Position numbers and translations under genes: made by a program. This document shows positions 25,827 to 61,319 of a stretch of 64,000 nucleotides of DNA, in pieces. Numbering within the stretch: position 1 is the first letter of the stretch; each line of letters starts with the position of its first letter. The notes under the pieces are model-generated. The model worked only from the letters and a program-made list of their open reading frames with translations, had not been told where the DNA came from and ran no database searches. The stretch is from a virus (Duplodnaviria > Caudoviricetes), in the IMG/VR virus record IMGVR_UViG_2711768098_000003, positions 20,517-84,516 of that record; one strand, given 5' to 3'.

Positions 25827-25916
25827 GTGGTGGGGGTTCTTTCGGTGTGGGTGTTGGTGGGAAAGTAGATGCCGTGTGGGGGTTTTGCATGCGGCAACCA
25901 ACAGTGCTGATGGCAG

Positions 25917-26282
25917 TCAGCGTGAGTTACGGGGTTCCCATGTTCGGATGACAGTGTCGGGTCCGGTGCCCCAGAAGTTGCAGCCATATCCGCGAAGCAC
26001 GCCGGCGGGGGCGTTAGCCCGGATGAACCCGAGCATCGCCTCTTCACCGTCTTCGTTTGCAGTGTGGATGTACAGTTCTTTCGGCCAGAATTCGTTGTCG
26101 CGCATCCAAATGAGGAGCGGCATGATTGTGTCGCTGTAGCCGAGGTCGTGATCCAGTGACAGCGCTGCGACTGGGTCACGCAGGAGTATCTGCCCGGCGA
26201 TTACGAGCTTGGCGTCGTCGACGTCCACCGCCAAAGCCCATCCATCGGGGGCGGGTCGTTCGTCGTCCACGAAAAGCATCAC
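25917..26282 (-). CDS. Cyclic-phosphate-processing receiver domain protein
   Basis: LFVDDERPAPDGW, LSLDHDLG and IHTAN motifs. Confidence 0.8.
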   Translation of the reverse strand: MMLFVDDERPAPDGWALAVDVDDAKLVIAGQILLRDPVAALSLDHDLGYSDTIMPLLIWMRDNEFWPKELYIHTANEDGEEAMLGFIRANAPAGVLRGYGCNFWGTGPDTVIRTWEPRNSR

Positions 26283-26452
26283 GATGTCTCCTCAGGTTCA
26301 GCAGCAGGGGCGGCGCGGTGTGATGCGTACAGTGCGATTCCGATGTGCAGGGCCGTGCTTCGTGCGTGCAGTGCAGTCGACGCGTTCATGCGGCGCAGCG
26401 CGAGAGCGTGCTCGTACGGCGACACGCCCCATGGGTCAGGCTCTCTCATCAC

Positions 26453-26578
26453 TCAGCAGCTCCCATCGCACGTGCAGGCGTAGCATTCTTCGCACTTCTC
26501 GCCAGACCCGCCAGGGCAGTCCCCGAGCGTCAGACCGTCGTCGCCTACAGGCTCGAGACATTCGATGCACTCGCCCAT
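26453..26578 (-). CDS. 41-aa Cys-rich miniprotein (8 Cys)
   Basis: Hand-translated MGECIECLEPVGDDGLTLGDCPGGSGEKCEECYACTCDGSC; TGATG-coupled to the upstream gene. Confidence 0.5.
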   Translation of the reverse strand: MGECIECLEPVGDDGLTLGDCPGGSGEKCEECYACTCDGSC

Positions 26579-27129
26579 CACTCACCGACCTTCGCAGCAG
26601 AAGCGGGAGTGCGGAGTCGTAGGTCCCTCGCCCGGAATGGCCCCTGTCCGCCGTCGAGGTCACGCCACCGCACCTCGATGTAGTCGATGCCGTGAAGGGA
26701 TTCGATGACGGTGCCCCAGTGTTCGGGCAGCAGGTACCAGTCGTCGCCGTTTCGGACTGCACGTTCGTCGTGGTACGACACGATGTCGCCCACCTGGAAC
26801 TTAGTTTCAGTGTCAGCCATTGTCGGCCTCCTTCGTGGTTGCCGAAGCATCAGCGGCAAGCAGTGTTTTCGCATCATGCACCGGGCACGTCTGACCCGGT
26901 TGGAGGCTGATGTAGCCGTGCGCCTGGCAGCCGCCGTGGTGATCGAACCAGCAGTCGTCTGGGTCGACTAGCTCCGACAGCAACGTTGTGGGCACGATAA
27001 TCTGCCCGGCCTGCACCAATCGGGACGCCACATGCTCGGCGACCTCGCGTGCCTCATGCCCATACATGCGATGGCCGATCACCGCCGCCACATCATCTTC
27101 AATCGCATCCGCGATGACGTCGATAGCGC

Positions 27130-28822: not shown

Positions 28823-29880
28823 TGGAAACCTCTATTGGTCACATACTCGGCGAGAGTGAGATATTGGGTGGAGATCTCGTCGGACTGGTTGCCGACGTGA
28901 CCTTCGGACGGTGTGACTACGTGGAATAGTTCGTTCGCGACTTGCAGGTAAAGCCTGTCGTTCTCGGCTTTTATGTGCCTGTCGATCCCGGTTTCAGCGT
29001 CCGACCATTTCGAACCGAAATATTCTTGGCCGCAGTTGCACTGGGCTTGATGGTCGGTGTTTCCGCCGCGATAGGTGCGTTTGATGAACCGTCTACCGTG
29101 CGGGGTCATGTGGGATCCTGTTCGCTGGGTAGCGGATTTGTGGTGATGAGTTCGATGATGCGTTCGCCGATGTCCTGCACGCCGGCGTCGTAGCCGCTGT
29201 CTGCGAGGTAATGGGCGTACTGTCCGACGCGGTCGATGGCGTCGTGGAGGCGGACACGTTCCATGCCGAGGGTCGTGTTCTTCGCTTCCAGTTCGCGGAT
29301 GCGGGCAGCCATGGCGGGAATGTCTTCGCGGGCATGAGCGATCAGCTCGGCGTCATAGGATGCACTGTTCGTGGACACCATGTCGATGAAGTTCAGGGCA
29401 GATCCTGATGCTTCTCCTGGCGCTGCGACGTTGTATACGTAGCCGTATTGGGTCTCGCGGCGAATGGTTTCCCAATGTCCTGGGGTGGCTGCGTTGGCGC
29501 GGGCTTCGATGGCATCCAAGTCGAGATCGATCACGCTGCGACCTCCTCGATGTCATCCATGTCGGCTTCCCAGGTTCCCACTGGCATATACCTGTTGTCG
29601 CCGTCTATGAGGAAGAGCGGACCCTTGGCTTCTGCTAGATCGGCCGCGTGGTCCAGGTCGTCCGCTTCTACATCCACGGACGTGGTCACCGTGGCTTGAA
29701 TGAAAACTCGGTACCGGGTCATGCGGCGAGGGTTTCCGTGCGGGCAATCTCGGCCTCAGCGGCAGCGGCATCCAAGGCGCGCTGCATCCGTGCAGCCACA
29801 GCCTGCAACTGCTGATGCGGCGACGGCACCAAACTACGATCCAAATAATCAGGTCGATCCAACATGGCGGGTTCCTTTGA

Positions 29881-29938
29881 CGTTTGGCAGAACGCTTCGT
29901 ACCCGCGTAACTGTATGCGCAACCGGCGCGTAACTCAA
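29881..29938 (-). promoter_or_regulatory. SigA-type promoter with GCG(C/T)AAC boxes, followed by a CTGCCA-loop hairpin
   Basis: Minus strand TTGAGT-N17-TACAGT (29938-29910); hairpin CGTT-CTGCCA-AACG (29894-29881); AAAGGA RBS. Confidence 0.7.
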
Positions 29939-33063: not shown

Positions 33064-33963
33064 CTAGAACGCCCCCGGTGCAACCTGGAAACACGGCAAC
33101 CCCATCGAACGCCACATCTCCACCACCTGATCCCGGTCATCCCACACCGCACGCACGTTGTACTGCCGCCGCACAAACCGATCAAACAATTCCGCTTTCA
33201 CCACCGAATCCTTACGGATATCCCCCGTCGCACGCATCAACAATCGTTCCGGGTGGATACCGTTAGCGGTCAACCACTTCGCAGTCTCCTGCGCGCACGA
33301 GGCCTCCCGCCCCGACATCACAATCAGCGCGCCGGGTAGCAGGTCGATGACCTCGGCGACATGCTCCACCAGCTCGTCTTCACCGACACGGCGGTAGTCG
33401 TAGGGGCTGCGGTCCCCCATCTTCGCGAGAGTGCCATCGATGTCGACGATGTAGGCGAGCGGCTTCGACTCATCCGGGACGTACACATCCGGTTTGACAG
33501 TCACGTCGGGACGCACTTCGATCGGCTTCCACGAACGGATCGGGAACCGTGCAGCCATGTCACGGATCACCGTCTCGCCCACGACACGGCCGCCAGCATC
33601 CCCGCGAGCCTTGTCACGCCGCAAACACTCTTCCAACGGTGTCGGCACATCCTGGGTGACGAATTCGGCGCCCACCTGCTTCGCCAACGATGCAACCTCG
33701 CGGGCATACTTCATCCGCAGGTTCGTGTCATCGAAGATGACGGATACACCGTTGCCGAGGAGGTGTTTCGCGGCAGTGTGTTGGGCGATCGTGACGGCCC
33801 GTTCCTGCTCGTATGTGCCGACGCCTTCGATGTTGAACATGCCGGCGCGGAGGTCGTCACGGTTGATGCGTGCACGATGGTTGGGGTCTTCGGCGACCCA
33901 TTGGCGTGCCCAGGTCGTTTTCCCTGACGCCGGGTATCCGCGTGTGGCTACAACAGTCGTCAT
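33064..33963 (-). CDS. T4 PseT-like polynucleotide 5'-kinase/3'-phosphatase
   Basis: P-loop GYPASGKTT, RDDLR, DDTNL; HAD DIDGT, SGR, DDRDQVV and QVAPGAF. Confidence 0.93.
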   Translation of the reverse strand: MTTVVATRGYPASGKTTWARQWVAEDPNHRARINRDDLRAGMFNIEGVGTYEQERAVTIAQHTAAKHLLGNGVSVIFDDTNLRMKYAREVASLAKQVGAEFVTQDVPTPLEECLRRDKARGDAGGRVVGETVIRDMAARFPIRSWKPIEVRPDVTVKPDVYVPDESKPLAYIVDIDGTLAKMGDRSPYDYRRVGEDELVEHVAEVIDLLPGALIVMSGREASCAQETAKWLTANGIHPERLLMRATGDIRKDSVVKAELFDRFVRRQYNVRAVWDDRDQVVEMWRSMGLPCFQVAPGAF

Positions 33964-35048
33964 GCGACAGCCTCCGAATGGTCGAGCATGAACGAATCGC
34001 CGCGCGGTTTCAACTGCTTCCAGATGGCATCGTTCATGCGGTCGTGTTGCCCGTCTGCGAGGCAGAACAGCAGGGACCGGTTGTCGTGTTTGACGGCGTG
34101 TGCCGCGAACCCTTTCCTGTCGCCGCTTGTGACCATCTGGTCGAGGATTTCACCGTAGGTGGCGACTGCGCGCGCCCCGATTGTCTTCCGCTTCTGCTGT
34201 AGCGCATTCCATGTTGTGGTCAGCCAGTCGTGGAATTCGTCGGGCAGGTCGGCGATGAGGTCTTCGAACGGCTGCCCGGATGCGGCATGTTCCCACACTG
34301 TTTTCTCGGACATGCCGGTGACGATTTTGTGGAGCTGCACGTATCGTTCCAGTTTCAGTTTCACCATTGTGCCGTCGCGGTATTGGACGACGAATCCTTC
34401 GGCGTTGTCACGTACGGGCGCGCGGAGGGCATCTGCGAGGGTGTCGTATGGGAACGTTCGAGACTTGCGGCCCGGCCAACCCCATCCGAAGGGTGCCAAC
34501 ACTTCACCGCTCGTGTTGTCCACGACGCCGAGGAGCACTAGGTCTTCGAAGTCGTAGTCGACGACGATGCGGTTTGCTTTGTAGATGATCTCGACTAGGT
34601 ATGTGAACCCTGGCGCGGGCGTGTAGTCGTCGGCGTAGTTTGCCTGCCAGTAGTCGGTTGCCCAGCGTGCTTGTTCGGACTCGAATGATCCGCGTGTCGC
34701 GATCTCGTAGAGTCCGTCCCTTGTCGGGTAGAGGATGCCTAGTGAGCCGTCGAGTTTGTCGGACACTCTGACGGGGGCGTCGAGGTCCAACTGCGGGTGG
34801 CGCTCTCCATCGTGTTCAGCGTCGTTGAAGAATTTGGGGAACGGTCGGGCTATCACTTCACCGGAGTCGTCGACGATGAGGCCGCGGCATTGCAAGGTCA
34901 CTTCATCCCATGCCTGCGAGTATGCGGTGAGCTCGGAGTAGTTGTAGATCCGGTATGGCAGGCGCGGGTGGGATCGTACTTTGACGAGGCCGGCGTCGAT
35001 GCGATCCTGCAGGACGGTTGGGTTCATCAGGTCGTCGATGTTCACCAT
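33960..35048 (-). CDS. T4 Rnl1-family RNA ligase
   Basis: CRGLI, ARPFPKFFN, motif I KLDGSLG, ATRGSF, EGFVV and VKLK. Confidence 0.92.
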   Translation of the reverse strand: MVNIDDLMNPTVLQDRIDAGLVKVRSHPRLPYRIYNYSELTAYSQAWDEVTLQCRGLIVDDSGEVIARPFPKFFNDAEHDGERHPQLDLDAPVRVSDKLDGSLGILYPTRDGLYEIATRGSFESEQARWATDYWQANYADDYTPAPGFTYLVEIIYKANRIVVDYDFEDLVLLGVVDNTSGEVLAPFGWGWPGRKSRTFPYDTLADALRAPVRDNAEGFVVQYRDGTMVKLKLERYVQLHKIVTGMSEKTVWEHAASGQPFEDLIADLPDEFHDWLTTTWNALQQKRKTIGARAVATYGEILDQMVTSGDRKGFAAHAVKHDNRSLLFCLADGQHDRMNDAIWKQLKPRGDSFMLDHSEAVA

Positions 35049-35806
35049 GCGATGTCCTCGAGGTAGTGGCGGCGTACGCGTTGCATGAAGTCTTCGATGG
35101 GCGCTTCGTCGGGATGCTCAGGCAGCGGCGACACGGCGGCATCGAACTTCTGCGAGTATTCGACGATCAAACTGTTGGCGGCTTTCGCCTCCGGATCAGC
35201 CTTGATGGATGCCCCGAAGTCGAAGAACGGTTGCGGATCCGGGACGCGGATGGGTAGGTGCCCGGTGGTGTACAGCTCGTAGCCTTGCCAGAGGAGTCGC
35301 ATCGTGTGGCGGGCATGTTTTTCGCGGCGGGTTTCGAGGCTGCCGGCGAACCTGCCACGGGAGAGTAGCCGTTTGAACTGGCTGGTGGCGAAGCCGAAGT
35401 ATGCGTCGCGGACACGCTTCCGGCACAGGAATGCCGTCCGCAGCCCGATCAGTTCTTCACCGAACGCATTCTTGCGTTGATGGTGGTCGAGCCACAGTAT
35501 TTCGGATGCTGTGGGGTTGCAGGACAGCATGAGTCCCATGGCTTTGCCGACTTCATGGAAGGTGGTGTCGGGGTCGTCGCGTTTCCATGTGGCGCGTTCG
35601 CGGGCGGGCGGGTGTAGGCCGAGGAATGCACTGGTGGGTTCGGCGTAGATGCCGGTGTAGTCGATGTCACTGTCAGGTGTGTTGAGTCCGTAGGCGACTG
35701 ATCCGACGATGCCTTCCAACAGGATGTGGGTGGTGCGGGTTTCGGGGTTGAATTTGGGGTGTGGTCGGATGATGCTGCGTGGCGGGTTGCCGGTGGTTGC
35801 GCTCAT
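35042..35806 (-). CDS. Pol-beta superfamily nucleotidyltransferase (RlaP/YcgL-like, RNA repair-associated)
   Basis: VGSVAYGLNTPDSDID, NP and KHARHTMRLL motifs. Confidence 0.85.
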   Translation of the reverse strand: MSATTGNPPRSIIRPHPKFNPETRTTHILLEGIVGSVAYGLNTPDSDIDYTGIYAEPTSAFLGLHPPARERATWKRDDPDTTFHEVGKAMGLMLSCNPTASEILWLDHHQRKNAFGEELIGLRTAFLCRKRVRDAYFGFATSQFKRLLSRGRFAGSLETRREKHARHTMRLLWQGYELYTTGHLPIRVPDPQPFFDFGASIKADPEAKAANSLIVEYSQKFDAAVSPLPEHPDEAPIEDFMQRVRRHYLEDIAW

Positions 35807-46716: not shown

Positions 46717-46722
46717 GGCCAG

Positions 46723-49287: not shown

Positions 49288-49316
49288 AAGTTACGCGCAA
49301 CCGTGCGCAACCACAA
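49288..49316 (-). promoter_or_regulatory. SigA-type promoter with operator boxes, probably leaderless into ATG 49280
   Basis: TTGTGG-N17-TAACTT; ATG begins 7 nt after the -10 element. Confidence 0.65.
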
Positions 49317-51813
49317 GCTGGTTACGCAGATGTGTTTGTGTCGCTCCCTGAAGCAGTGGCCCATTGGGCGATGGTGAAAAGCTCACCGTTCTGCCGAACC
49401 TCAAACCAGTGGCGGTGCCACTCGCCCTCGTTGTCGCAGCCGAACCCGTCAACGCGACTGCACCACTTGATGCGAGGCTGGTAAGCGAGGCGCACTTCTT
49501 CGAGCGACAGAGTCTCCTTTGGCGACTGCAGGCCGAGGTTGTGTTCGAGGTCGGCTTGCAGTGCTGCGGAGTCGAGTCCGTGACCTTGGTGAATTCGCCC
49601 CCAGCGCCCACTGCTGGTGTAGATGTCCTGCGGGTACTCGTTCACTGGTCCTCCTCAGCGGCAGCAGCAGCGGAGAGGAGAGCTGCGGCGACTGCACGCG
49701 CTTCGTCAGGCGTCCACATCGTCAGACCTGACCATCTCGCCTCCACAATGCCCGGATGCTGGCCGACTGCTGCGCCGATGTCTGCGAGCCCCTGCGGATA
49801 CCAGACCGGGAACGTAAGCCCCTCGAAGCCTGGGCGCGTGTCGGCAACTTGCTCGCTGTAGGCGGGCAGTTCCACGATGCTGTATCCGGCGTCCGACAAC
49901 CGGGACACCACATGAGCCGCGAGGTCGTGCACTGTCATCGTGTTCGGGAACGCGCCCCATAGTTGGCCGTCATCGCGAGCACCCGGCGCGCCGTTGTGGC
50001 CCTCAGTTGCGACGTCCCGCATCGCGTCTGCGATGATTTCCAGTTCCTTGCTCACGACTCACCCCCAGGGCATCGACTAGCGGCGTGCATCTGCCGGATG
50101 GTCTTGCCAGCAGCCATCGAGTGATTTGGGCACAGGGGGTCGACCCGATTGGAGTCGACAAGGCCGCACGACTCCTGAGGGCACGGGCATTCATCCTCGA
50201 TTGGATGCCCGGACCATGACCGGCCAATATGGTGGCTCATGACTCACCCCCAGCAGCACGAGGAGGGTGCCACAACACCGTCAGTGGGTACCGAGCATTC
50301 TCGGAGTGAACTCGTTTATAGAAACTCTCATCGCTGTTTGGGTAGTACTCGATGCGGTCCTGTGGGTCGGTGCATTCCAGCCCGACACCCATTGCCTCGG
50401 AGTCGTCTTCGTGCATGTAAGCCATCCAGAACATGCCCTCGCGGTCCAGCACTGGGATAGCGGTGGATAAGCCGATGACGTTGTACTGCTCCATGAACTC
50501 CCACAATGAATCGGGATCGACGATGACTGGCTGCACGATGAGGGCTGCAATCACAGACGCCTGATGGGCAGCGAACTGTGCGTCCCAGTCGTCGCCGGTC
50601 TCGTCAACCTTCCAGCCACAGCCGCGGCATTTCCCCCAGTCGTCGTCCGCATGCTTCGCCAACGCCTCTGCGATGACCTCCACGGGGGCGCTCACGCGGT
50701 ACGCGCCAACTGGAGTTCCGCAGCCGACGACCACATACCCACCTGCCGCGTCACATGCATCACATCCTCATTCCCCGCCCACTGCAACACCATCGACGGT
50801 TCCGCAGGCACAATCCGACCATCCGGCCAATACAAGCCATGCTCGATATCAACATCGTCCATCGATGCACGTTTCGTCGTCACCTTGTTGGCGGCGAGCA
50901 CCGCCTGTAGGGCTTCGGCAGAGTTGTAGAAGTTGGTGGCGATGCGGGTGCGTCCGGCTTGGCTGGCCGTTTCGGCTGCCGCGGTCCAGGTGTCGATGAG
51001 GGTTTCGAGGTCGGCGCGCAGTGACATGGGTGTTCCTTTCAGGGGCGGCTGGCAGGCCACGATGGTTCAGGCTTGAATCGTCGGGATTTCGTCGAACAGG
51101 TAGGTGCGGGGGCGTTGCGGAAAGGTGCGGATGACGAGGCCGGATAGGGAGATAACGGCGTGGTCGTCGTCGTGATCTTCGGGTAGCCCGCAACGCTCAT
51201 CGTTGTAGGTGGGGGCACCGCATTCCGGTGCGCTACGCGGGAGTGGCTCGACTCGATCGAACTGGCGGACAGTCATGCCGCATCGAAGAATTCGTGGACC
51301 GACAGTGCACGCGTCACCGAATTCGCATCCTCCACAGCATGCCCCTTAATCAACTCTTCCAGCCGATCCGCTGTCCGATCATCCGCCGCAGCATCCGACG
51401 TCCACCCGGACGGGAAGTCATCCGGGACCGTGAACTGCTGGCGGTGCCGCGTCAACTCATCCCACTCCACAACAATGTTTTTCACGATGCTTCACCGCCG
51501 ATGTAGGCGATGTACACGTCGCCTTGCCGAACCTCGGCTTTGAAGCCGTGCCCGAATGCTGCCGTGTCGCCGCGGTTGATGCGGGATCGGAATCCGGACG
51601 GTGATTTCAGGTTGCGGGGGTAGCGGGCGTACGTGTTGGGTCGCTGCCGGAGTTCGTCTGCGAATTCTTTGTTTTCGGCGTGGCGTGCGAGGGTTTCGGG
51701 TTCGGGGAGGTGGTCTACGAATTCGATGACCATGGGTGTGGTTCCTTTCGGGGTGGTGGCCGGGCCGCGGCGATAGCAGTCGTCGCGGCCCGGTGTTGTT
51801 GCGGGATGATGGT

Positions 51814-52278
51814 TTAAAACGGTGGATTCTGGTTTCCGAAGTTGCCTGATGCGACGGGTGCGGAACCCCACGGATCGTCCTGCGCGGACTGATTGTTTCG
51901 ACCCTGTCCGCCAGCCGCATTGCTGCGGGAAGCCTTCTGCGGGCGAGCGGTGGCGAACTGGAGGGAAGGGCCGACAGCCTCGACGTCGACCTCCAGGCTG
52001 TATCGAGTCTGCCCATCCTTGTCGTACGGGCGGTTCTTGATGCGTCCGAGGATGACGACCTGGTCGCCCTTCTTCAGGGATTCGGCGATGTTCTCGGCGA
52101 GGTTGCGCCACGCGTTCGCTCGATACCAGGTGGTGTCACCGTCCTTCCAGTCATTGCCGTCCTTCACGCGTTCGGTGACGGCGACGGAAAAGTTGACCAC
52201 GGCGGCGCCGGAGGCGGTGAAACGAAGTTCTGGATCCTGTCCGAGCGATCCGACGATGGAGACTGTTGCTTGAGCCAT
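51814..52278 (-). CDS. ssb: Single-stranded DNA-binding protein
   Basis: DPELRFTASGAAV, AWRNLAENIAESL, VGPSL, DDPW and C-terminal PPF. Confidence 0.95.
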   Translation of the reverse strand: MAQATVSIVGSLGQDPELRFTASGAAVVNFSVAVTERVKDGNDWKDGDTTWYRANAWRNLAENIAESLKKGDQVVILGRIKNRPYDKDGQTRYSLEVDVEAVGPSLQFATARPQKASRSNAAGGQGRNNQSAQDDPWGSAPVASGNFGNQNPPF

Positions 52279-52317
52279 TTCGGCTGGTCCTTTCGGTGGG
52301 GGTGGTGTGGTGGAGGG

Positions 52318-52602
52318 TTATTCGGCGGGGGAACTGGCAGGCTCCCACGCCTCCAGAATGTCGGCGAGCTGGTCGAGCTTCTGACTGCGGTAGTCGTTCC
52401 AATGCATGTCGCCGGCGACGACAACAGGGACTCCCCTGTATCCGAGTTCGCGTACACGTTCGGCGCCGTTCGGGTCTTTGGTGACGTCGACTTTCGTGTA
52501 CGGGATCTCGTTTTTGTCGAGGTGGCGGGCGGTTGCCATGCATGGCCCGCATCCTGGTTTCGAGTAGAGGGTGACGGTTGGGGCGTCGGGGTGGATCGTC
52601 AA
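52318..52602 (-). CDS. nrdH: NrdH-like glutaredoxin
   Basis: YSKPGCGPC, GYRGVPVV and HW..YR motifs. Confidence 0.88.
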   Translation of the reverse strand: MTIHPDAPTVTLYSKPGCGPCMATARHLDKNEIPYTKVDVTKDPNGAERVRELGYRGVPVVVAGDMHWNDYRSQKLDQLADILEAWEPASSPAE

Positions 52603-53302
52603 GGGTGTTTCTTTCTGTGGTGGGGTTATTCGATGTCGTCGCGGGCGGCGAGTTCATCGGGTGACGGTGGATGCTTGAGCTTCCGCTCCTCATTCGCGAT
52701 CGTCGCGGACACGCGCTTGAAAATGGCTACGTAGTCGCCAGGTTCTTCTGCGACGATGTCCGCGATTTCGTCGCCGATGCGATACATGCGCTCGTTTTCT
52801 GCGTCGATACGCCGGGCTTCTGCCCTGAGCTCGTTTGCAGCATCGGACATTCCCACGCTGTCGAGGTGTGCAGCCGCGTCGGTGAAGGCGTCAGCCGTGG
52901 TGGACATTTTCATGCTGCGATCGCTCCAAGGTCGAGGTACGCAGCCAACGCGTACGCACTAATCGTGACTTCGATACTCGAGTCCTCGAACCGCTCCGAA
53001 TCATCCTCCAGCAGTGCATCAAGCCGCTCCGCCAGCCCATCCAGCGTGCCCTCTTCGAACTCGACCACCTTGTCTTCGCTGTACTCCGGGCCGCTATCAG
53101 ACCAGTAGGAGCCGCGGATCAGGTTTTCTTCGCGTCGCACCCATTCGAGTTCGTAGTCGACGCGTTTCCAGTGCGGTGATGTCGGGTTGGGTTCGATGAA
53201 GTAGCGGATGTTGTGGCCGGTGGGGAGGCCTGCTGCGGTGATGTCTGCGGTTTCGTGGGGGGTGGGGATGCGGTAGGTCATGGTGGTGGTCCTTTCGGTG
53301 GC

Positions 53303-53355
53303 GCCCTGGCAGGGGCTTCACGGTTCAGGTTACGCATGGTTGCGCGCATATGCAA
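53303..53355 (-). promoter_or_regulatory. SigA-type promoter with operator boxes + CTGCCA hairpin
   Basis: TTGCAT-N17-TAACCT (53355-53327); GCCC-CTGCCA-GGGC (53316-53303); CCGAAAGGA RBS. Confidence 0.72.
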
Positions 53356-53368
53356 CCCGGTTGCGCAT

Positions 53369-54409
53369 TTAAGCTGCGGCAACGAGCTCATCGACTGCCA
53401 GTAGTTGCGCAGTGACAGCCTGCGCGAGCATCGGCGGCACAGCATCGCCAACCTGCCTGTACTGCGATGTCTTCGTTCCCTGCCACGGATAATCCGCAGG
53501 AAACGTCTGCAACACCGCCGATTCTTCAACGGTGAGTTGCCTGCCATTCGGGTCGCGGTCACGCGGTCCACCCGCTCGAGTCAATCTCGTTGACCATGCT
53601 GCTGTCGCCTTGCCTGTAATGGTCGGCGCCGGATACCGGATCGGCCGCGGATCAACCTGCGTCGACGACGTTCCCGCCGGCGCCAACGCCTTCACGTCGC
53701 CAATACCGCGGCGACGCAACTGCCATCCGAGAACATCCTGCGTCGACACCCACCGCCTCATATCGGCGTCCAGCCAGTCAGGATGCAAGGACCGGTAGCG
53801 GGAATGCGTCGGCGATGGGAGTCGAGCGGGGCCTCGCAGCATCGTTTCCCGCGGCGATCGAGCAACCAGAATGGCCCGCTTTCTGGTTTGCGGCACCCCG
53901 TACCGTTCGGCTTGCAGGATGCCCGCGTCGACGCTGTACCCAACGGCTTCGAGGATGGCTGCGCACGCCTTCCATATCGGCAGGGCTCCGGGTACCTGCT
54001 CCCACGCCACCCATTCGGGGGTGTTTGCGAGTAGCCACCTGATCGGCTGCATGATGAGGATGGTTCGCGGATCCGACATTTGCGGTTCGAGCGCGTCGAT
54101 TGCGTTCTCGACGTCAGCGAAGGTTCGGATGCCGTGCAGCGCCTCGAGGATGAGGTCGACCTGTTTGGTTCCGCGTTGCGCGCCTGCTGCAGAGAGTGAT
54201 TGGCAGGGTGATGACGCGAGTTGCCCGGTCGAGGGGAAGTCGCGGGGGTCGAGTTCGGTGACGTCGCGCATCAGCCTGGCATGCCCGGCTGCTGTGGCGG
54301 TGGCGCAGGCGTCTGCATCCCATTCGATACCGAGGTAGTCGCCTGCGTATCCGGCTTGCCGTATCCCGGTACTCCATCCACCAGGTCCTGCGAACAAGTC
54401 GATGATCAT
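53369..54409 (-). CDS. C5 cytosine DNA methyltransferase
   Basis: DLFAGPGG, SPCQ, EQV, YGVPQTRKR, LQTFP and QVGDAVPP motifs. Confidence 0.92.
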   Translation of the reverse strand: MIIDLFAGPGGWSTGIRQAGYAGDYLGIEWDADACATATAAGHARLMRDVTELDPRDFPSTGQLASSPCQSLSAAGAQRGTKQVDLILEALHGIRTFADVENAIDALEPQMSDPRTILIMQPIRWLLANTPEWVAWEQVPGALPIWKACAAILEAVGYSVDAGILQAERYGVPQTRKRAILVARSPRETMLRGPARLPSPTHSRYRSLHPDWLDADMRRWVSTQDVLGWQLRRRGIGDVKALAPAGTSSTQVDPRPIRYPAPTITGKATAAWSTRLTRAGGPRDRDPNGRQLTVEESAVLQTFPADYPWQGTKTSQYRQVGDAVPPMLAQAVTAQLLAVDELVAAA

Positions 54410-54894
54410 GGGTGGCCGCCGAGGAGTCTGAGGAAACCGCGGGCCGCGTAGGTGGTGATCGTGTACCAGGGCACGTACATGGCATCCAGTAGGAGGTCGA
54501 ATCGTCCTGGCCGGTAATGCTCGTCTCTCATGCTGCAGCCTGGATTGCACGGTAGTGGGCAGCCCACTCGCTGATCGACAGTTCGACGAGACTGTCGGGG
54601 CAGCGATTCGGTGTCGACAGGACTCGCGTGAAAACTGTTGGCAGGTTGTTGAATGTGCCGTATTCGTAGCGTGGCGTCCGGTTCGGCTCGTCGTAGTGGG
54701 CGTCGACGGTCAGTTCATGCCATTCGATGACGAAGTCGGCGGCGTCACCGGATGCGGTGTGTTCGTCGAGCCAGAAGTCGTCGCGGCTGAAGTTGATGTC
54801 GACGCCGGCGGTGGGTGCGATGCCGATGCGGCGGAGGAGGTTGCGTTCCCTGGTGGTGAGCAGTGTTGTGGCGGTCATGGTGTTCCTTTCGGCG

Positions 54895-54955
54895 GGGCTG
54901 GCAGGCCCAAACGGTTTCGCCCCGTAGGTTACGCGCGGTTGCGCAGTTTTGGCAA
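54895..54955 (-). promoter_or_regulatory. SigA-type promoter with operator boxes + CTGCCA hairpin
   Basis: TTGCCA-N18-TAACCT (54955-54926); GGGC-CTGCCA-GCCC (54908-54895). Confidence 0.72.
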
Positions 54956-55657
54956 GCTGGTTGCGCAGGCTACCACAGGAGTGGGAAGCCTTCGTCGAGG
55001 TGACTGACGTCATCCGGTAGGACCTCGACCTCCGCGGCCGGTGCGACTCGCGTCGACCATCCGGGTGCGTCATCGTCGATCCACCGCACCAACACCACCT
55101 CGGCGGCGCCACGGTTTGTGTCGACTTTCCATTCGAGTCCCCGCCACATCACACGCGCGGCAACCGGTAGAACACTCATCGAAACCTGCTTTCCATCAGA
55201 TGATTCGGCCGTAAATGTCGAATGACGGGCCGTGATGCATGACGCTCCGCGGATACCGGTAGGCGTCTTCGATTTGGTCGGGTGTGCAGCCGATGGCTTT
55301 CGCCGCTGCGACGGCGGCGTTGTATCCAGCCCAGTCGTTGGAGCGTACGGCTGCGGCGATGCGGCGGAGTGCGCCGAGGATGGCTTTCGGACTGGGCTGA
55401 CGCCTGGTCACGCGGCTTTCGTGCCGCCGATGGTGGCTGCGAGTTCGTCGATGGCGGGGAGGATGCGGGTGGCGGGGATGTCGATGACGTCGCCGACGTC
55501 GGTGATGACGGTGGCGGTGAGGTTTCCGTCGTCGTTGAGGGTGTAGTCGATGATTTCGATGATGGTGACGAAGATTTCGGGGCCGTTGCGGTCGATTCCG
55601 ATGCAGCGGTTGAAGATGTTGTGCATGGGGTGTGCCTTTCGGTGTGGCATCGGGGTG

Positions 55658-55736
55658 TCGGTGGCAGCCGGTGTCCGATGCGGTGGTGGTCGTGACGTTC
55701 TTCCGTCAGGTTACGCATAGTTGCGCGTAACCGCAA
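55658..55736 (-). promoter_or_regulatory. SigA-type promoter with operator boxes + CTGCCA hairpin
   Basis: TTGCGG-N17-TAACCT (55736-55708); CGG-CTGCCA-CCG hairpin near 55660. Confidence 0.72.
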
Positions 55737-55741
55737 GCATG

Positions 55742-57049
55742 TTACGCAACGCGTGCTTGGTACGCCTTCCATAGAAGCGGAACCGTCCCCAACCGGCCAG
55801 TCCTGTTCTTCGCGATCACGAACTCGACAGTCCCAGTCGGCTCACCCTGATCCGTCTTCTCGTGATGCAACAGAATCACCACATCCGCGTCCTGCTCGAT
55901 CGACCCCGATTCCCGCAGCTCAGACAATGCAGGCTTACGTTCCTGGTTGGCCGCATTGCGGTTCAACTGGCACGCCACGATCACCGAGCAGTCGAGCTCC
56001 CGCGACAGGATTTTCAGGGCACGCGAAATCATCGCGACCTGACGTTCACGGGCAACCTTCGTATCCGACTCGCGCAGCAACTGCAGATAGTCGACGACGA
56101 TGACGTCGAGGCCTTCCGGGCGACGTTTCAACGTCCGGCAGATCGCAGCAATGTATTCGACGGTGATGTCGGACTTGTCGACCAACGTCAACGGCATTTT
56201 GCGGTGACTGTCGGTGTACGCCTGCAGCTTCGACCGATTGTGGTCATCGATGTTGCGTTTGGTGATCTGCCCGTATTCGGCCTGAGCACCGGAAGCCATG
56301 ATGCGGGAGACGACCTCGGTCTCCCCCATTTCGACGCTGAAGATGACTGCGGGGTGCCCGAGTTGTGCGGCGTGGGTGGCGAAGTTGAGCAGGGCGATGG
56401 ATTTGCCTTCGCCGGGTCGGCCGCCGACGACGTAGGACCGTCCTGGCTGCAGTCCGCCGGCGAGCATCTCGTTGACTTCCGCCCACGGCGTGGCGATGGT
56501 TTTGACGTCGGTGCGCGGCGCATCGGCCCACTCCCACCATCCAGCGAGGGCGTCTTCGAACGAACGGGACTCTTTTGAGGGTGCAGCCTCACTGAGGCCG
56601 GAAATCTGCTCAGAAGCGAAATGAAGGGCTTCCGAGTAGGTGTTGGCGCGTCCCGCGTTCTCGGCGGCACGGTGGAGTGCATGCAGAAGGTGCCGGGATT
56701 TCGCCAACTCGGTCACCGCCCGGGCTGCAGCGTGCGCAGCCTTCGCCTGAACCGGCTCCCCCGCCAACGCTTTCACGCGAACCTTCACCGGGTGCGCTTC
56801 CGCCGTGAACTCTGCGAGCAGTAGCCGCTTGGACACCTGGCGGCCCGATGCGGCGATGCGCTTCGCCGCCGACCACAGTTCACCGAGGTGTGGATCGTAG
56901 AAGTCTTCGGCTGCGACAGACGCCAGGAGCGCCTCGTGGTCGTGGCGCAACGTCACCGACAGGATCGCCGAGACGAGTGTCGCTTCGTCGCCGAGCGACT
57001 CGAGGAGCTCTTCAGATTCATGAAAGACGCGGGTGTCTGGGGTGGTCAT
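55742..57049 (-). CDS. dnaB: Replicative DNA helicase
   Basis: GGRPGEGKS, FSVEM, VDYLQL, QLNR, LRESGSIEQDAD and KNRTG motifs. Confidence 0.95.
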   Translation of the reverse strand: MTTPDTRVFHESEELLESLGDEATLVSAILSVTLRHDHEALLASVAAEDFYDPHLGELWSAAKRIAASGRQVSKRLLLAEFTAEAHPVKVRVKALAGEPVQAKAAHAAARAVTELAKSRHLLHALHRAAENAGRANTYSEALHFASEQISGLSEAAPSKESRSFEDALAGWWEWADAPRTDVKTIATPWAEVNEMLAGGLQPGRSYVVGGRPGEGKSIALLNFATHAAQLGHPAVIFSVEMGETEVVSRIMASGAQAEYGQITKRNIDDHNRSKLQAYTDSHRKMPLTLVDKSDITVEYIAAICRTLKRRPEGLDVIVVDYLQLLRESDTKVARERQVAMISRALKILSRELDCSVIVACQLNRNAANQERKPALSELRESGSIEQDADVVILLHHEKTDQGEPTGTVEFVIAKNRTGRLGTVPLLWKAYQARVA

Positions 57050-58236
57050 GCTGCTTTGCTCGCTTCCCTGGCTCCGATTTTGGCGACGATGGCTTCGAGG
57101 TTCGTCTCGATCCATTCACGGCGGTGCTTCTCGAAGAACCGCTTGGTTTCGGCGTTGTCGAGTCCGTCTGGCGGGTCAGGCTGGGTGTAGTAGATCCCGG
57201 CACGGTCTTCGATCGGCTTGACGGTGGCGTCGCGCCAGCACGCCCGCGCCCAATCACGGATGGTGTCGGAATCTTCGGGGAGTTTGATTCCGTCGCGGAT
57301 CATCTGCCCGAGCAACGTGTCGTACTTTTCGCGGAACTTCGACATCGACTGGATGTTCGGTTTCCACCACGACTGCTGAGACCACCGGAGGACTGCCATC
57401 GCTTTGGCGTGAGGGATCTCGTCGATGTCGAGAAGTTTGCGGGCGTGGTCTCGCCATGCTGCCGGGTTCTTGGGTTTGCGGAATCCGTTTGCGATGACGG
57501 ATCGCTCAAGTTCTAGGCAGAGCTCTTCGACGTCAGGTCGAACCGGCGACGGTTCGGACATGTCTTTTAAAGGTAAAGGTATAGGTAGGGACCCCCCATC
57601 CTTGGGGGCATCCTGGGGGCAAACCTTGGGGGCATCCTGCCCCCCACCGTTGGGGGCACCCTTGGGGGCATCCTGGGGGGCGTCGCCGGGCGGATCGTAC
57701 GACTGCACGGCATACAAAATGCCCTCCCGATTCGGGAACGAAGTCGGAAAGATCGCCGGATCGATCGACTCCCGATCAAGCAACGCGGCGATGCGCTCTG
57801 CAGCCTTGGGGACGCCAGACCACCCCTTCAACGTCGGGTAGTTTTCACGCAGCTTCCGGAGTTCGTGGACCACCACGCCGCGCAAAGTCTTCGATGCGAT
57901 CGCACCGTAATCGTTGAGCATCGACACCACCGTCGAAGGATTCTTGAGCACGCCGTCGTACTTGATGAACGAGCGGACCAAGATTTCCTCGGTGTCCTCG
58001 TCGACAATCACGAACAGTTGGACCGCGAGTTCGGTTGCGGCTTCCCGGATCGCATCCGGTGTCCAGCCCCGGGCTTTCGCGGCAATCTTGCCGGGCCGCC
58101 AGTCCGCCACTCCGGCGTAGGAGAGCGTCGGATCGGTCATGAGCGCGAAGTAGAGGTGTTGGGCGGTGGGTGTGAGGTCACGGAATCCGTCGTCCGCCCA
58201 GATGTCTAGGCGCACGGGGGCGTACTCGCGGGGCAT
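57046..58236 (-). CDS. Phage replication initiator protein
   Basis: IWADDGFRDLT..AQHLY N-terminus, central iteron-encoded repeats, WKPNIQSMSKFREKYD C-terminus; coupled to dnaB. Confidence 0.8.
   Translation of the reverse strand: MPREYAPVRLDIWADDGFRDLTPTAQHLYFALMTDPTLSYAGVADWRPGKIAAKARGWTPDAIREAATELAVQLFVIVDEDTEEILVRSFIKYDGVLKNPSTVVSMLNDYGAIASKTLRGVVVHELRKLRENYPTLKGWSGVPKAAERIAALLDRESIDPAIFPTSFPNREGILYAVQSYDPPGDAPQDAPKGAPNGGGQDAPKVCPQDAPKDGGSLPIPLPLKDMSEPSPVRPDVEELCLELERSVIANGFRKPKNPAAWRDHARKLLDIDEIPHAKAMAVLRWSQQSWWKPNIQSMSKFREKYDTLLGQMIRDGIKLPEDSDTIRDWARACWRDATVKPIEDRAGIYYTQPDPPDGLDNAETKRFFEKHRREWIETNLEAIVAKIGAREASKAA
57561..57685. repeat. Putative replication origin: TGGGGGCA iteron-like repeats with an adjacent AT-rich tract inside the initiator gene
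   Basis: Five to six copies of (T/C)TGGGGGCA, including CTTGGGGGCATCCTG three times; TCTTTTAAAGGTAAAGGTATA next to them, as in lambda O-type origins. Confidence 0.7.
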
Positions 58237-58793
58237 GGTGTCTGCTTCCTGTGGGTGGGTTAGGCGGCGCGTGCGGCGCGGTAGGGTGCTTCGTTTTCGA
58301 CCTCGGCGGCTCGAGTCGCCTGCAGCTTTTCGTCAACAGTCGCTGACTCGTCAATGAGGTCTTGTAGTTCTTCGGGGTCTGGGTCGCCGGCGTTGATGAT
58401 GTATGCGGCGGCATCGAGTAGTGCCCAGTTCTGTCGCATCAGATCGTTGACGCGGTCGCTGGCGCCGGGGATTGCCTGCCAGTCGCCGAGCCTCTCAACG
58501 TTGTCGTTCATGGGCGTTCCCGGACTGCGTCGACTATCAGCCGGGCACCTTTGATCGCTGCGGAGTGCTGTTCGCAGAGTGCGATCACTGCGTGTTCCGG
58601 GCAGTACGGCCAGCCGTCTGGGTGTCGCCCGGAGTGGTCTGTGATTGTGGCGACGGCGAGTGCTGTGCAGGGTGCGAGTAGGTCCACGTGAGAGCATTCT
58701 CGGTCGAGTGTCAGTTGCTGCATGAGGGTTCTTTCTCCGATGCGAGCGCGGGGGCCTGCGCCAGGTGACGCAGACCCCCAGCGGCGGCATGAT

Positions 58794-59657
58794 TTAGGCG
58801 GCCTGTACGACACCGAGGTCGGCGGCACGTGCTTTCGCCAACGACATCAGCGTCTGCGCGTTCGCGCCCGTCAGCGTGTTCTGTGCCGTCGAATACAAGC
58901 CAAGGAGTGTTTCCCTGTCGGTCGCAGCTTCGATCTGCGCCGTCAGCTTCTCCACGACATCGTCGTCGTTCACAGCGGGCGCCTGCGCCTGACTCTGCTC
59001 CGACATCTTTTCCGAAAGCGATGCAACTCCGCCCTGCCGTTTCGGTGCAGCCTCGCGGGCAGGGGTTGAAGCAGTCGGTTCGTCGTCGCCGTTGAGGGGA
59101 CGCTCAACCTCGTCGTGACCCATCGACTTGGATTCGGGCACGTTCTCCTGGATGTCCTTCTCGACGTCATCCTCACCGGGCATCACCAGTGTTCCGCCGA
59201 CGAGGGCGGCCAACTGCCCCTTGTTGTACAGCGACAATCCGAACTGGTCACCGAGTGCGATAGCGCAGCGCTTCTTCGCCAGCGAGATCGCGGACTTGAA
59301 GGCTAGGTCGTGGCCGTCCGCCCGGGACTGGTTGGAGCTTGACCCAGTCGATCCGTCTTCGAATCGGCACACTAGGTCGCCGCTACTGTTCCGTACGGTG
59401 AGGCGCATGGTGACGCGGTAGCAGACATCGAATCGGCCTTCAGGCTTCGTTCCGTCACGCTTGGTGTGCTGCTGTTCGAACACCATGTCGTCGGACAGCA
59501 TTTCGTAGTCGAATGCTCCGAAGCCGAAGATACGGTTGAGGTGCGCGAGTACATCCTGCTGAGGCAGATGCGCGTTGCCCTTGCCGTCTTTCATCACTCG
59601 AACCGGATTGATGGGCGAGAGTAGCTGTTTCGTCTGCGCTGAGGTGAAGTTTGCCAT
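58794..59657 (-). CDS. Rad52/Sak-family single-strand annealing protein
   Basis: LNRIFGFG, FKSAISLAKKRCAIALGDQFGLSLY. Confidence 0.85.
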   Translation of the reverse strand: MANFTSAQTKQLLSPINPVRVMKDGKGNAHLPQQDVLAHLNRIFGFGAFDYEMLSDDMVFEQQHTKRDGTKPEGRFDVCYRVTMRLTVRNSSGDLVCRFEDGSTGSSSNQSRADGHDLAFKSAISLAKKRCAIALGDQFGLSLYNKGQLAALVGGTLVMPGEDDVEKDIQENVPESKSMGHDEVERPLNGDDEPTASTPAREAAPKRQGGVASLSEKMSEQSQAQAPAVNDDDVVEKLTAQIEAATDRETLLGLYSTAQNTLTGANAQTLMSLAKARAADLGVVQAA

Positions 59658-59700
59658 GATGTTTCCTTCGGTGGTTGTGTGGTTGCGGTGGCAGCCGCGG

Positions 59701-60753
59701 TCAGGCTGCGATGGGGATGTTTTCGGCGGCGAGGCGTTCCTTGCGGATCGCGTGTAACTGTTCGAGGACGTCGTGCGGTTTCGACGGCTTCTTCAACGTC
59801 GTTCCCCCGCCCCGGACACCACTGCGGGTAGCGACGACCAAAGGCTTCGCCTTCAGTGGCTTACCGGACTTGCCGTACACGGTCGGTGTCGGCACGATCG
59901 CTTGACGCGCCTTACCCATCACCCTGAACACGTCCGACTTCGCCTTCGACAATCGGCCTTCAGCGCGTTCGAAGTCCGTCAACGCGTCCAGGTATTCGAT
60001 CCCGAGGTCGATGTTGATTTCCCACTCTTCGCCAGCCTCGCCTCGCAGAATGTCGGGGTGGACTCGACGGATCGCTTCGAAGGTTTCCGCACGTGTGTCG
60101 TTGACGGGTTCGATGCCGAGCTCCAGTGATCGCATGAAGGCTGCGACACGGAATTCCACGTCGGCGAACAGGGCTGCGTCGTAGGTGATCCAGTAGGTGT
60201 CCTGGTCGTCGATCATCGGCCCGGACTTGATGAATGCGGCGCGCGTCAACTCGGGGTGTGTGTGGCGTGCGATGAGGATCTGCCAGATTCCCTGAGCGAG
60301 GTAGTCGTAGGGGATGACATCGGTGCCGGGATCGCCCCACTGCGCATGGTCGGCCCATTGTCCTGCGGTTTTGTTGTCGATGACGATGGTTTCGCCGGTT
60401 TCGCGGTGGCGGGCGACACTGTCGGGTGTTGCGGCGGCGGGGTAGCCGAGGTCATCGCGGGTGTACAGGACTTCGCCGGGTGCGAGGCGCTCCCATTCGG
60501 GGTGCTCGTCGAACCATTTCCGCAGGAAACCTTCCTCGAGGTAGTGGCCGCGGTTCTGCACTTTGTTCGACTTCCGGGGAAACGCTTCGGGATGCCGCAT
60601 CTTCAACCACATCGACTTCTCGGAGTCGTGGGTGGACATGCCGATCATCGCGGCGACTTTCGATGCGGTCGCGGTGATGCGCCAAACGTCACCGTCTGGG
60701 GCCATATCGTCTGGGCAGGCAGGAGCTTCCGGCTTTGGTGAGGTGTCAATCAC
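59701..60753 (-). CDS. YqaJ/lambda-type exonuclease
   Basis: TASKVAAMIG, RGHYLE, ATPD, IDNKT and YLAQGIWQ motifs; adjacent to the annealase. Confidence 0.85.
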   Translation of the reverse strand: MIDTSPKPEAPACPDDMAPDGDVWRITATASKVAAMIGMSTHDSEKSMWLKMRHPEAFPRKSNKVQNRGHYLEEGFLRKWFDEHPEWERLAPGEVLYTRDDLGYPAAATPDSVARHRETGETIVIDNKTAGQWADHAQWGDPGTDVIPYDYLAQGIWQILIARHTHPELTRAAFIKSGPMIDDQDTYWITYDAALFADVEFRVAAFMRSLELGIEPVNDTRAETFEAIRRVHPDILRGEAGEEWEINIDLGIEYLDALTDFERAEGRLSKAKSDVFRVMGKARQAIVPTPTVYGKSGKPLKAKPLVVATRSGVRGGGTTLKKPSKPHDVLEQLHAIRKERLAAENIPIAA

Positions 60754-61006
60754 AGTGCGACCGCCATCCATAATTCGCCGAGACCCCACACTGATCCGGC
60801 GCTTAACGCCAGCGTGGCGGCTGCACGCCACATGAAAGCCGTCGACATCGTCTTCAGGGATGCGGTGTCATCGATGACCGTTGTACGATTGGACGGCACA
60901 ATGCACACGCCCTGTTGAGGGCGGGTTCCTTTCGGTGCGACGGAAGCCGGTTTCGCGCAAGCCCTTGGCAGAGGGGCGGGACCGGCTTTCGCCGTTTCTG
61001 TCGGTG

Positions 61007-61288: not shown

Positions 61289-61319
61289 CCTTTCAGGCGA
61301 GTTTCAAGTATTTTTCGTG

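Follow-up and report, generated by a model that had tools for sequence, protein, structure and literature searches.

Introduction

Gene starts of cluster K mycobacteriophages carry the start-associated sequence (SAS), a fixed 13-mer GGGATAGGAGCCC (PMC3203893), and the arms of the extended start-associated sequence (ESAS) are described as conserved 17-bp sequences with a variable spacer, for which the authors saw little support for an RNA hairpin (PMC3203893, PMC12699233). According to PMC12699233 the function of SAS/ESAS was still untested as of 2025, and this multi-copy, start-associated actinophage motif has stood unexplained since 2011. Here we describe a comparable element, a predicted RNA hairpin with the hexaloop CUGCCA (CTGCCA in the DNA), which recurs ahead of early genes in a 64,000-nucleotide stretch of phage DNA and in one distant relative, G001. 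The stretch, which we call the window, comprises bases 20517-84516 of the single-contig virus record IMGVR_UViG_2711768098_000003 (84,516 bp; G000 below). Site coordinates are window positions unless stated, and those cited for the relative (2665, 54404-55660, 55678, 84692-85654 and 86976) follow the numbering of G001.

As SAS/ESAS is presented in those two reports, it shares with the CUGCCA hairpin a multi-copy occurrence (11-19 per genome) in one orientation in the non-structural half of a temperate actinophage genome, and a position within a few nt of start codons or Shine-Dalgarno (SD) sequences; a further likeness is that about half of the SAS/ESAS copies are described with an upstream inverted repeat. 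The differences lie in the build of the element. The published 13-mer GGGATAGGAGCCC is absent from the G000 leaders, where CC-GAAAGG(A) stands in its place, and whereas the ESAS is reported to have conserved arms and a variable spacer, the CUGCCA hairpin has variable, covarying arms of 3-7 bp around an invariant 6-nt centre. The hairpin is therefore closest to SAS/ESAS among described systems but is not a member of that family. It is also the cleaner case: its hexaloop is invariant, its stems covary, its SD distance is fixed, it is confined to early genes, and a diverged relative has kept it.

Post-transcriptional regulons are well described for phage T4 and hardly for actinobacteriophages. 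In the T4 account that we draw on, the gp43 operator is a short hairpin with a conserved loop that lies upstream of the ribosome-binding site (RBS), runs into it and serves as a single autoregulatory site, RegA represses about 30 early and middle mRNAs at initiation regions through A/U-rich, unstructured sites, and RegB cuts the intergenic initiation regions of early genes by reading GGAG in the SD, all three contributing to the post-transcriptional coordination of early-gene shut-off (PMC3014915). Like the gene 43 operator as it is described there, the CUGCCA hairpin lies just upstream of the RBS. Unlike T4, G000 showed no gp43, RegA or RegB homologue in our protein annotation, which consisted of a Pfam scan of 70 window open reading frames (ORFs) and a PHROGs scan of 20.

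The lambdoid boxB is a small hairpin placed early in early transcripts, in which the loop and not the stem sequence is read by a phage protein; each genome has two copies, which are accompanied by boxA, carry a GNRA-like pentaloop in lambda and P22, and exert their effect on RNA polymerase. The CUGCCA hairpin, unlike boxB, comes in 11-15 copies, lacks boxA and is tied to RBSs. Gram-positive 5′ stabilisers made of a stem-loop and SD, and the intercistronic RNase III sites of T7, work through structure alone or are long irregular helices, and to our knowledge no invariant hexaloop is common to all copies of either; the likeness is that of a hairpin near a 5′ end followed by a strong SD, or of hairpins that punctuate a polycistronic phage RNA. 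REP/RAYT elements and IS200/IS605 ends, which are extragenic and often paired palindromes accompanied by a Y1/HUH transposase gene, differ from the CUGCCA hairpin, which occurs singly, in one orientation and linked to the SD; Pfam found no Y1/HUH domain in the 70 window ORFs. In the tRNA mimic of the thrS-operator type, a 5-bp stem carries a 7-nt loop identical to the anticodon loop of a host tRNA. A full-text search of the actinophage literature, with subscription journals and supplements outside its scope, returned no comparable hairpin.

CTGCCA hairpins are enriched on the coding strand

An earlier note on this DNA listed ten minus-strand hairpins with the loop CTGCCA. Direct inspection found all ten (Table 1), and the claim that the copies share one strand holds for 11 of 11 in G000. 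The eleventh, absent from that list, has its loop at 52335-52340, and its stem (GGGAGC/GUUCCC) has 6 bp and reaches into the 3′ end of the glutaredoxin gene. Pairing was borne out in the listed stems, but their lengths had been understated, since those with loops starting at 25911, 29885, 46660, 48997 and 51050 reach 5 bp, and the copy at 60966, which had been called weaker, turned out to have a clean stem of 4 bp, enclosed by a longer outer helix.

Hairpins were called where CTGCCA is flanked by at least three pairs (at least four under a stricter threshold). By this definition 11 of the 23 minus-strand occurrences in the window form a hairpin compared with 1 of 32 on the plus strand. A genome-wide strand count against randomised sequence, which had been proposed as a check, gave a result far above chance: over the whole 84,516-bp genome at least three pairs flank 11 of 30 coding-strand occurrences and 1 of 38 on the other strand, and at least four pairs flank 10 of the 30. 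With a background chance of such flanks at any position of 5.1% (three pairs) or 2.1% (four), the binomial P is 1.2 × 10−7 at the lower threshold and 3.3 × 10−10 at the stricter one. Simulation of 300 first-order Markov sequences gave a mean of 1.32 and a maximum of 6 hairpins with at least 3 bp, and a mean of 0.44 and a maximum of 3 with at least 4 bp, as against the 11 and 10 observed.

CTGCCA is likewise the most frequent hexaloop among the 1768 coding-strand hairpins with stems of at least 4 bp, occurring in 10 copies where the runner-up has 6. Loop variants with one mismatch are found at chance level (10 minus, 20 plus), and none occurs in a G000 leader ahead of a GAAAGG-type SD. In effect, the loop does not vary. 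We considered a sense-strand partner hairpin (loop UGGCAG) and rejected it, as none was found and the sole plus-strand CTGCCA hairpin (34644) depends on G.U pairs.

Stem sequences vary while pairing is kept

We aligned 25 SD-linked sites from G000 and G001 as 7 + 6 + 7 nt and scored a five-pair helix. Across these sites pairing holds in 90.4% of the helix cells, each of the five pairs varies on both sides (49 cells), and 18 further pair types occur. The covariation score of 1.01 compares with 0.216 for shuffled partners, none of 500 shuffles reaching 1.01, and with 0.25-0.27 when the partner is slid by one column. The fourth pair, which lies outside the selection criterion, is formed in 24 of the 25 sites. 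The earlier observation of differing stems with pairing kept is confirmed by this covariation around an invariant loop. Folding with native flanks retains the hairpin in the minimum-energy structure at 7 of 11 sites.

The hairpins are not intrinsic terminators: they lack a U-tract, their 3′ flanks are C/A-rich, and a terminator scan flagged 0 of the 11. A covariance model was built and Rfam was searched, as had also been proposed. No Rfam family covers the hairpins, as only tRNA passes the gathering threshold and, at E ≤ 10 in 46000-61500, there are four chance matches, none of them on a hairpin. When the covariance model (R1) of the 20-nt core was searched over 1.48 Mb, the 25 best matches all fell in G000 and G001, and the other 81 loci (about 1.3 Mb) gave 14 weak matches of at most 18.6 bits. 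A strand test based on G.U versus A.C pairs was dropped as uninformative because flanks rich in A and C mimic pairing on the opposite strand.

At hairpin 2 (within 59685-59715, minus strand) the loop and the 5′ arm, GGCUGC, may pair with GCAGCC at the end of the YqaJ gene, which gives a competing 6-bp hairpin in the predicted minimum-energy fold.

Hairpins lie in early leaders ahead of Shine-Dalgarno sequences

Every one of the 11 copies lies in a leader or an intercistronic gap and is followed by an SD and a start codon. The earlier statement that hairpins usually stand just 5′ of a GAAAGG-type RBS agrees with this arrangement: an SD is found behind 11 of 11, with the form GAAAG(G/A) in nine, GAAGGA in one and AAAGGA in one. 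Of the 25 sites in both genomes, 17 have 2-9 nt between stem end and SD, 7 have 15-34 nt and one has 62 nt. In the short spacers C accounts for 70% of the bases, A for 20%, T for 6% (6 of 103) and G for 4%, and the base 5′ of the stem is never G at any of the 25 sites.

All copies fall between the immunity region, represented by the helix-turn-helix (HTH) repressor, and dnaN (24669-25826). A whole-genome scan found no copy in the virion and lysis half (terminase, portal and coat genes) nor in the 20.5 kb outside the window. The genes downstream of the hairpins are a small membrane-type ORF before YqaJ, the Rad52-like annealase, five orphans, SSB, the SNF2 helicase, a 48-aa ORF and dnaN. The small orphans are acidic (pI 4.1-4.9), with no Pfam or PHROG match. 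The small ORF between hairpin 1 and YqaJ (60750-60908, minus strand) has a hydrophobic tail and a position conserved in G001, and a second stable hairpin lies between its SD-like GAAAGG and its start.

The copies were also said to lie often just after a promoter. By a promoter-like motif that we defined by eye, TTGCNN-N17/18-TAACCT, which is a putative assignment and not a mapped one, this stands for 4 of the 11 (Table 1), with the loop starting 14-40 nt after the −10 element. It does not stand for the other 7, and a generic promoter scan flagged none of the 11 sites, the only promoter that it found being at 61365-61336. The copies outside the promoter-linked set follow an upstream stop codon; one hairpin contains the stop codon and one lies before it. 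On the coding strand the promoter-like motif occurs five times in G000 and four times in G001, with 0 on the other strand, and a wider form can be written as TTG(C/T)NN-N17/18-(G/C)CGTAA(C/T)NT with repeated GCGTAAC/TGCGCAAC words. The fifth G000 copy, at 49316, could possibly give rise to a leaderless mRNA.

The motif is conserved in a distant relative and rare elsewhere

A search with the commonest stem plus SD pattern found G001, an IMG/VR provirus of 90,137 bp and 65.7% GC that is rated 99% complete. It is syntenic with G000 over 37 alignable segments totalling 28.9 kb, mostly at 64-78% identity. In G001 at least three flanking pairs are present at 18 of 39 coding-strand CTGCCA versus 6 of 43 on the other strand, and an SD follows within 70 nt behind 14 of the 18 coding-strand hairpins. 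One opposite-strand copy (2665) has every part of the cassette (promoter-like sequence, C-rich spacer, CCGAAAGG, ATG) and is in sense with a plus-strand DUF2786 gene, which brings the SD-linked copies in G001 to 15. The motif therefore follows gene direction and not genome strand, and we regard this copy as the strongest single argument for what would be an action on the transcript.

Nine leaders are orthologous between the two genomes. All 9 of these have the same loop in both genomes, although identity is 41-77% across the 60-nt flanks and 42-55% between the orphan proteins encoded downstream. The stem of hairpin 1 recurs unchanged in G001 at 86976, and the single G.U pair of hairpin 6 is G-C in G001. 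At two positions the cassette is kept and the cargo is swapped, with a Rad52-like gene (58794-59657) in G000 versus RecT (84692-85654) in G001, and a 48-aa ORF (29719-29865) in G000 versus an RNA ligase (54404-55660; hairpin 55678) in G001. Further G001 cargo behind hairpins includes ArdA and a metallophosphatase. The swapped-cargo cassettes coincide with mosaic junctions. A third carrier of the motif is implied by the glutaredoxin homologue P0001, on a 2.8-kb contig, whose tail WEPASSAAE spans the WEPASS codons that overlap hairpin 6.

The hairpin family is rare in the collections searched. The 80 IMG/VR loci that share the SNF2 helicase have only the helicase and methylase genes in common with G000 and lack the motif, their rates of CTGCCA with stems of at least 4 bp (5 of 383 and 14 of 536) corresponding to background, and no other loop is enriched in the nine closest of them. 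A search with the 123-aa orphan protein gave no match, a YqaJ alignment search found only G001, BLAST against GenBank phages returned similarity to single genes (helicase/methylase, SSB, glutaredoxin, methylase), and a covariance-model search of phage REQ2 gave no match. In a comparison of DNA at 80% likeness, contigs of several organisms covered conserved genes in patches, and none could be used at the hairpins. The pattern GCCCCTGCCAGGGC-N1-12-CCGAAAG had 7 single matches in species-representative genomes and 10 in metagenomes, none with a second same-strand copy followed by an SD, and such isolated matches are at about chance level.

Four of the metagenome matches (L110, L113, L116 and L117, all soil contigs) represent one IS200-like tnpA leader, in which a TAGGTT −10-like element and GCCC-CTGCCA-GGGC are followed by CCGAAAGGAG and ATG. 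The occurrence of the same hairpin in this unrelated IS200-like element is probably a coincidence.

Possible modes of action

A stem that needs only to pair, an invariant loop, a short distance to the SD, orientation with the gene, restriction to early genes and persistence at about 50% identity together point to an RNA operator that is read through its loop by one macromolecule. We tentatively propose, at a little under even confidence, that a loop-specific RNA-binding protein sets the translation initiation and, secondarily, the stability of early mRNAs. The layout of hairpin before SD, as in the T4 gene 43 operator, and a coordinate early control like that of RegA and RegB favour this reading. 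The cis-acting element would be the hairpin in 5′ leaders and intercistronic gaps of early mRNAs, with the hexaloop as the part read, and the trans-acting protein that recognises it is more likely to be encoded by the phage than by the host. Because the hairpin usually ends 2-9 nt before the SD, or about 13-27 nt before the start codon, a protein on it would occupy the 5′ margin of the site where the 30S subunit binds. Binding would then set translation initiation, and thereby mRNA lifetime, across an early set comprising anti-restriction, recombination, replication and several acidic orphan genes, and we lean modestly toward repression or shut-off over activation. The earlier note had suggested a protein-binding RNA element; what stands is an element that is structured, on the transcript strand, tied to early-gene SDs and conserved in G001, to which protein binding would be added. 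Among the three mechanisms it offered, a translational operator fits the geometry best and a boxB/nut signal is disfavoured.

Several observations weigh against a protein-read operator. Choosing sites for at least three pairs gave the covariation table a partial bias in its inner three pairs, the minimum-energy fold adopts a competing structure at 4 of 11 sites in native context, and folding energies are ordinary for the composition (best z-score −2.46); the case rests on the comparative pattern and not on thermodynamics alone. The orthologous stems are mostly unchanged rather than compensatory. The motif is carried by two genomes, with the third carrier deduced from a protein tail, and independent evolutionary sampling is therefore thin. 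At 8 of the 25 sites the hairpin lies 15-62 nt from the SD, which is too far for simple steric competition. The scans of the 70 and 20 ORFs recognised no RNA-binding protein, and action at the RNA level is itself deduced from sequence patterns.

Candidates for the factor are leads and not findings. Two conserved basic proteins of G000 and G001 have no assigned function, a 40-aa CxC...H peptide (46092-46214) and a 102-aa protein (40495-40803). The former is encoded on the minus strand directly after a hairpin-preceded orphan, is 45% identical in G001 and, with the pattern FWR...H..CxCGW.GYS..GH.RS, looks like a mini zinc-binding module. The latter was found in only three clusters, and its AlphaFold model, with a mean pLDDT of 39.6, was not used. 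A third lead by analogy with T4 gp32 would be SSB, whose own leader has a conserved, unstructured, C/A-rich spacer of 34 nt. The pattern as a whole points to a shared factor that would control early genes after transcription in G000 and one distant relative. If the factor were encoded by the phage, the finding would amount to a new RNA-binding protein or nuclease that is loop-specific and has a compact tag, and this tag could be useful to tune or insulate genes in Rhodococcus-type and mycobacterial hosts; if it were a host protein, the hairpin would reveal a leader signal read by the host translation or decay machinery.

An alternative that we consider unlikely is that the hairpin marks mRNA processing or stability, either as an endoribonuclease site that splits polycistronic early RNA or as a 5′ barrier that acts with a strong SD against decay by RNase J or RNase E. 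A hairpin with a strong SD is the classic layout of a Gram-positive 5′ stabiliser, and 4 of the 11 G000 copies and 3 G001 copies begin about 10-40 nt from a promoter-like −10, near the presumed mRNA 5′ end, with the remaining copies at cistron junctions. T4 RegB, as described in PMC3014915, is a precedent for a phage nuclease that targets intergenic initiation regions of early genes, and G000 encodes the RNA-end enzymes PNKP, RNA ligase and RlaP. Six loop bases that stay invariant at 25 sites, however, are more than a pure structural barrier calls for, RNase III requires longer stems than these, the ORFs scanned yielded no nuclease candidate, and G001 keeps the hairpins yet has no tblastn match to the PNKP, Rnl1 and RlaP of G000. 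A link between the hairpin and the RNA-repair module was dropped because G001 shows no match to that module. It would also be possible, with a still lower probability, for the hairpin to be a factor-independent translational enhancer or insulator that shields the SD from upstream pairing or offers a standby platform, its loop perhaps contacting rRNA or a ribosomal protein. Such a role would fit a hairpin that adjoins a strong GAAAGG SD across an unstructured C/A-rich spacer and goes with genes needing de novo initiation after a gap, and a conserved host target would account for the same loop in two phages that have diverged to 40-78% identity in their shared proteins. Against this, a 6-mer match to rRNA is expected by chance, and other leadered genes with the same type of SD do without a hairpin (61294, 58735 and 51749, for example).

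The remaining readings move the signal away from the ribosome or assign the loop to a tRNA. We think it very unlikely that the hairpin acts as DNA, that is, as a single-stranded hairpin or duplex site for a replication, recombination, transposition (HUH/Y1-type) or methylation protein, or as a linker for module exchange. The cargo swaps occur exactly behind the cassette, the tnpA leader in soil contigs has the same GCCC-CTGCCA-GGGC hairpin, both phages encode a C5 DNA methylase, and since the hairpin-bearing genes are all on one strand in G000, DNA strand and RNA sense are inseparable there. They separate in G001, where the plus-strand copy is in sense with its own gene; moreover, a DNA signal would have no reason to keep a constant 2-9-nt distance to the SD, arms that vary around an asymmetric invariant centre are unsuited to a dimeric binder of duplex DNA, and no Y1/HUH gene is present among the proteins scanned. 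Slightly less probable again is a role in antitermination, with the hairpin as a nut/boxB-like or pause signal at which RNA polymerase would receive an antiterminator. The hairpin has the size of boxB (4-6 bp stem, small loop), several copies are promoter-proximal, and hairpin 1 comes after the first early gene (HTH_17, in the cro position) and before another stable hairpin. The 25-nt 5′ flanks of the 25 sites nevertheless hold no conserved boxA-like block, and with 11-15 copies per genome, more than half of them without a promoter-like element (7 of 11 in G000), the universal link is the SD; one copy, hairpin 8, follows a terminator-like hairpin where a nut site would precede it; and the Pfam/PHROG scans of early ORFs, a search that was not exhaustive, recognised no small arginine-rich N-like protein. 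Least probable in our judgement is a tRNA look-alike that recruits a synthetase, modification enzyme or anticodon nuclease, or pairs loop to loop with a tRNA. The loop shares UGCCA with the UUGCCAA anticodon loop of tRNA-Gly(GCC) in one actinobacterial genome, possibly not that of the host, where it is U33-G34-C35-C36-A37, and UGCCA is the exact complement of the U33-A37 stretch of the tRNA-Ala(GGC) anticodon loop; the hairpin loop has 6 nt compared with 7, and ARAGORN found neither tRNA-Gly(GCC) nor tRNA-Ala(GGC) across the collected phage loci. If this were true, translation of the whole early set would be tied to the host tRNA pool, a phage-wide, multi-copy version of the thrS-operator/T-box idea.

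Genome setting and other features

G000 has a GC content of about 62% and carries nearly all of its genes on the minus strand. By the Pfam and PHROG assignments, HTH_17 is followed on that strand by a YqaJ exonuclease, a Rad52-like annealase, a replication initiator/DnaD-like protein and DnaB; then by a C5 DNA methylase, glutaredoxin, SSB and an SNF2-type helicase with a second methylase; then by an exonuclease, a WhiB-like protein, an RNase H-domain protein and a module of RlaP, Rnl1-like RNA ligase and PNKP; and then by RusA, ThyX, a cREC_REC protein and the DnaN clamp. Beyond dnaN lie the terminase, portal, minor capsid protein with an intein, and coat protein genes. This order from integrase and repressor to coat indicates a temperate actinobacterial phage or prophage and places the hairpin region in the early, non-structural half.

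Table 1. Positions of the hairpins, promoter-like motifs and flanking genes in the window (promoter-like motifs are putative)
Feature	Position	Strand	Loop start	Sequence	Context
Tyrosine integrase	62699-64000				Pfam/PHROG scans
M78 peptidase	61936-62631	+			divergent pair with HTH repressor
HTH repressor	61502-61918	+			immunity region; divergent pair with M78 peptidase
HTH_17	61007-61288	-			first early gene (cro position)
Hairpin 1	60962-60975	-	60966	CCCU-CUGCCA-AGGG	inside outer helix about 60938-60994; after HTH_17 gene; precedes small membrane-type ORF (start 60908) and YqaJ exonuclease gene
Hairpin 2	59685-59698	-	59689	GCGG-CUGCCA-CCGC	starts 2 nt past YqaJ stop codon; ahead of Rad52-like annealase (start 59657)
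Promoter-like motif	55708-55736	-		TTGCGG-N17-TAACCT	upstream of hairpin 3
Hairpin 3	55659-55670	-	55662	CGG-CUGCCA-CCG	within outer 7-bp helix 55647-55681; ahead of 72-aa orphan (start 55626)
Promoter-like motif	54926-54955	-		TTGCCA-N18-TAACCT	upstream of hairpin 4
Hairpin 4	54895-54908	-	54899	GGGC-CUGCCA-GCCC	ahead of 116-aa orphan (start 54878)
Promoter-like motif	53327-53355	-		TTGCAT-N17-TAACCT	upstream of hairpin 5
Hairpin 5	53303-53316	-	53307	GCCC-CUGCCA-GGGC	ahead of 123-aa orphan (start 53281)
Hairpin 6	52329-52346	-	52335	GGGAGC-CUGCCA-GUUCCC	one G.U pair; overlaps last glutaredoxin codons; 34 nt upstream of SSB SD (SSB start 52278)
Hairpin 7	51045-51060	-	51050	GUGGC-CUGCCA-GCCGC	ahead of 111-aa orphan (start 51027)
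Promoter-like motif, fifth copy	49288-49316	-			runs almost straight into ATG
Hairpin 8	48992-49007	-	48997	UGCCC-CUGCCA-GGGCA	preceded by terminator-like hairpin; ahead of SNF2-type helicase (start 48977)
Promoter-like motif	46688-46716	-		TTGCGT-N17-TAACCT	upstream of hairpin 9
Hairpin 9	46655-46670	-	46660	CGCCC-CUGCCA-GGGCG	ahead of 138-aa orphan (start 46630)
Hairpin 10	29880-29895	-	29885	GCGUU-CUGCCA-AACGU	predicted outer helix encloses SD; ahead of 48-aa ORF (start 29865)
Hairpin 11	25906-25921	-	25911	GCUGA-CUGCCA-UCAGC	5′ arm holds cREC_REC stop codon; 62 nt upstream of dnaN SD (dnaN start 25826)

The end of the G000 record coincides with the integrase start codon (window 64000), and genome position 1 lies inside a DUF2786-type gene. 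A protein look-up also found the 102-aa protein (40495-40803) on a contig of 197,911 bp, and the record therefore probably represents a prophage trimmed from a bacterial contig. One protein cluster with a match to a G001-type ORF is labelled by its source as a hypothetical protein of Rhodococcoides fascians, which suggests hosts of the Rhodococcus type.

The RNA-repair set of RlaP nucleotidyltransferase, Rnl1-like RNA ligase and PNKP spans 33064-35806, and a cyclic-phosphate-processing receiver, cREC_REC, is encoded separately at 25917-26282. A tRNA-Met (CAU) gene (18155-18230, minus strand) is carried between the early and virion regions, and the intein-splicing domain lies inside the gene for minor capsid protein 2 (8978-11299, minus strand). 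Ala-Ala is the C-terminus of about a fifth of the predicted proteins (G000, 26 of 120; G001, 22 of 130), for an alanine fraction of about 12%. These ends, examples of which are at 59701, 58794, 57046, 54528, 52910, 47676 and 24669, often fall at ...GCAGC(A/G)TGA start/stop overlaps and could possibly serve as a coupling signal or a C-terminal degron.

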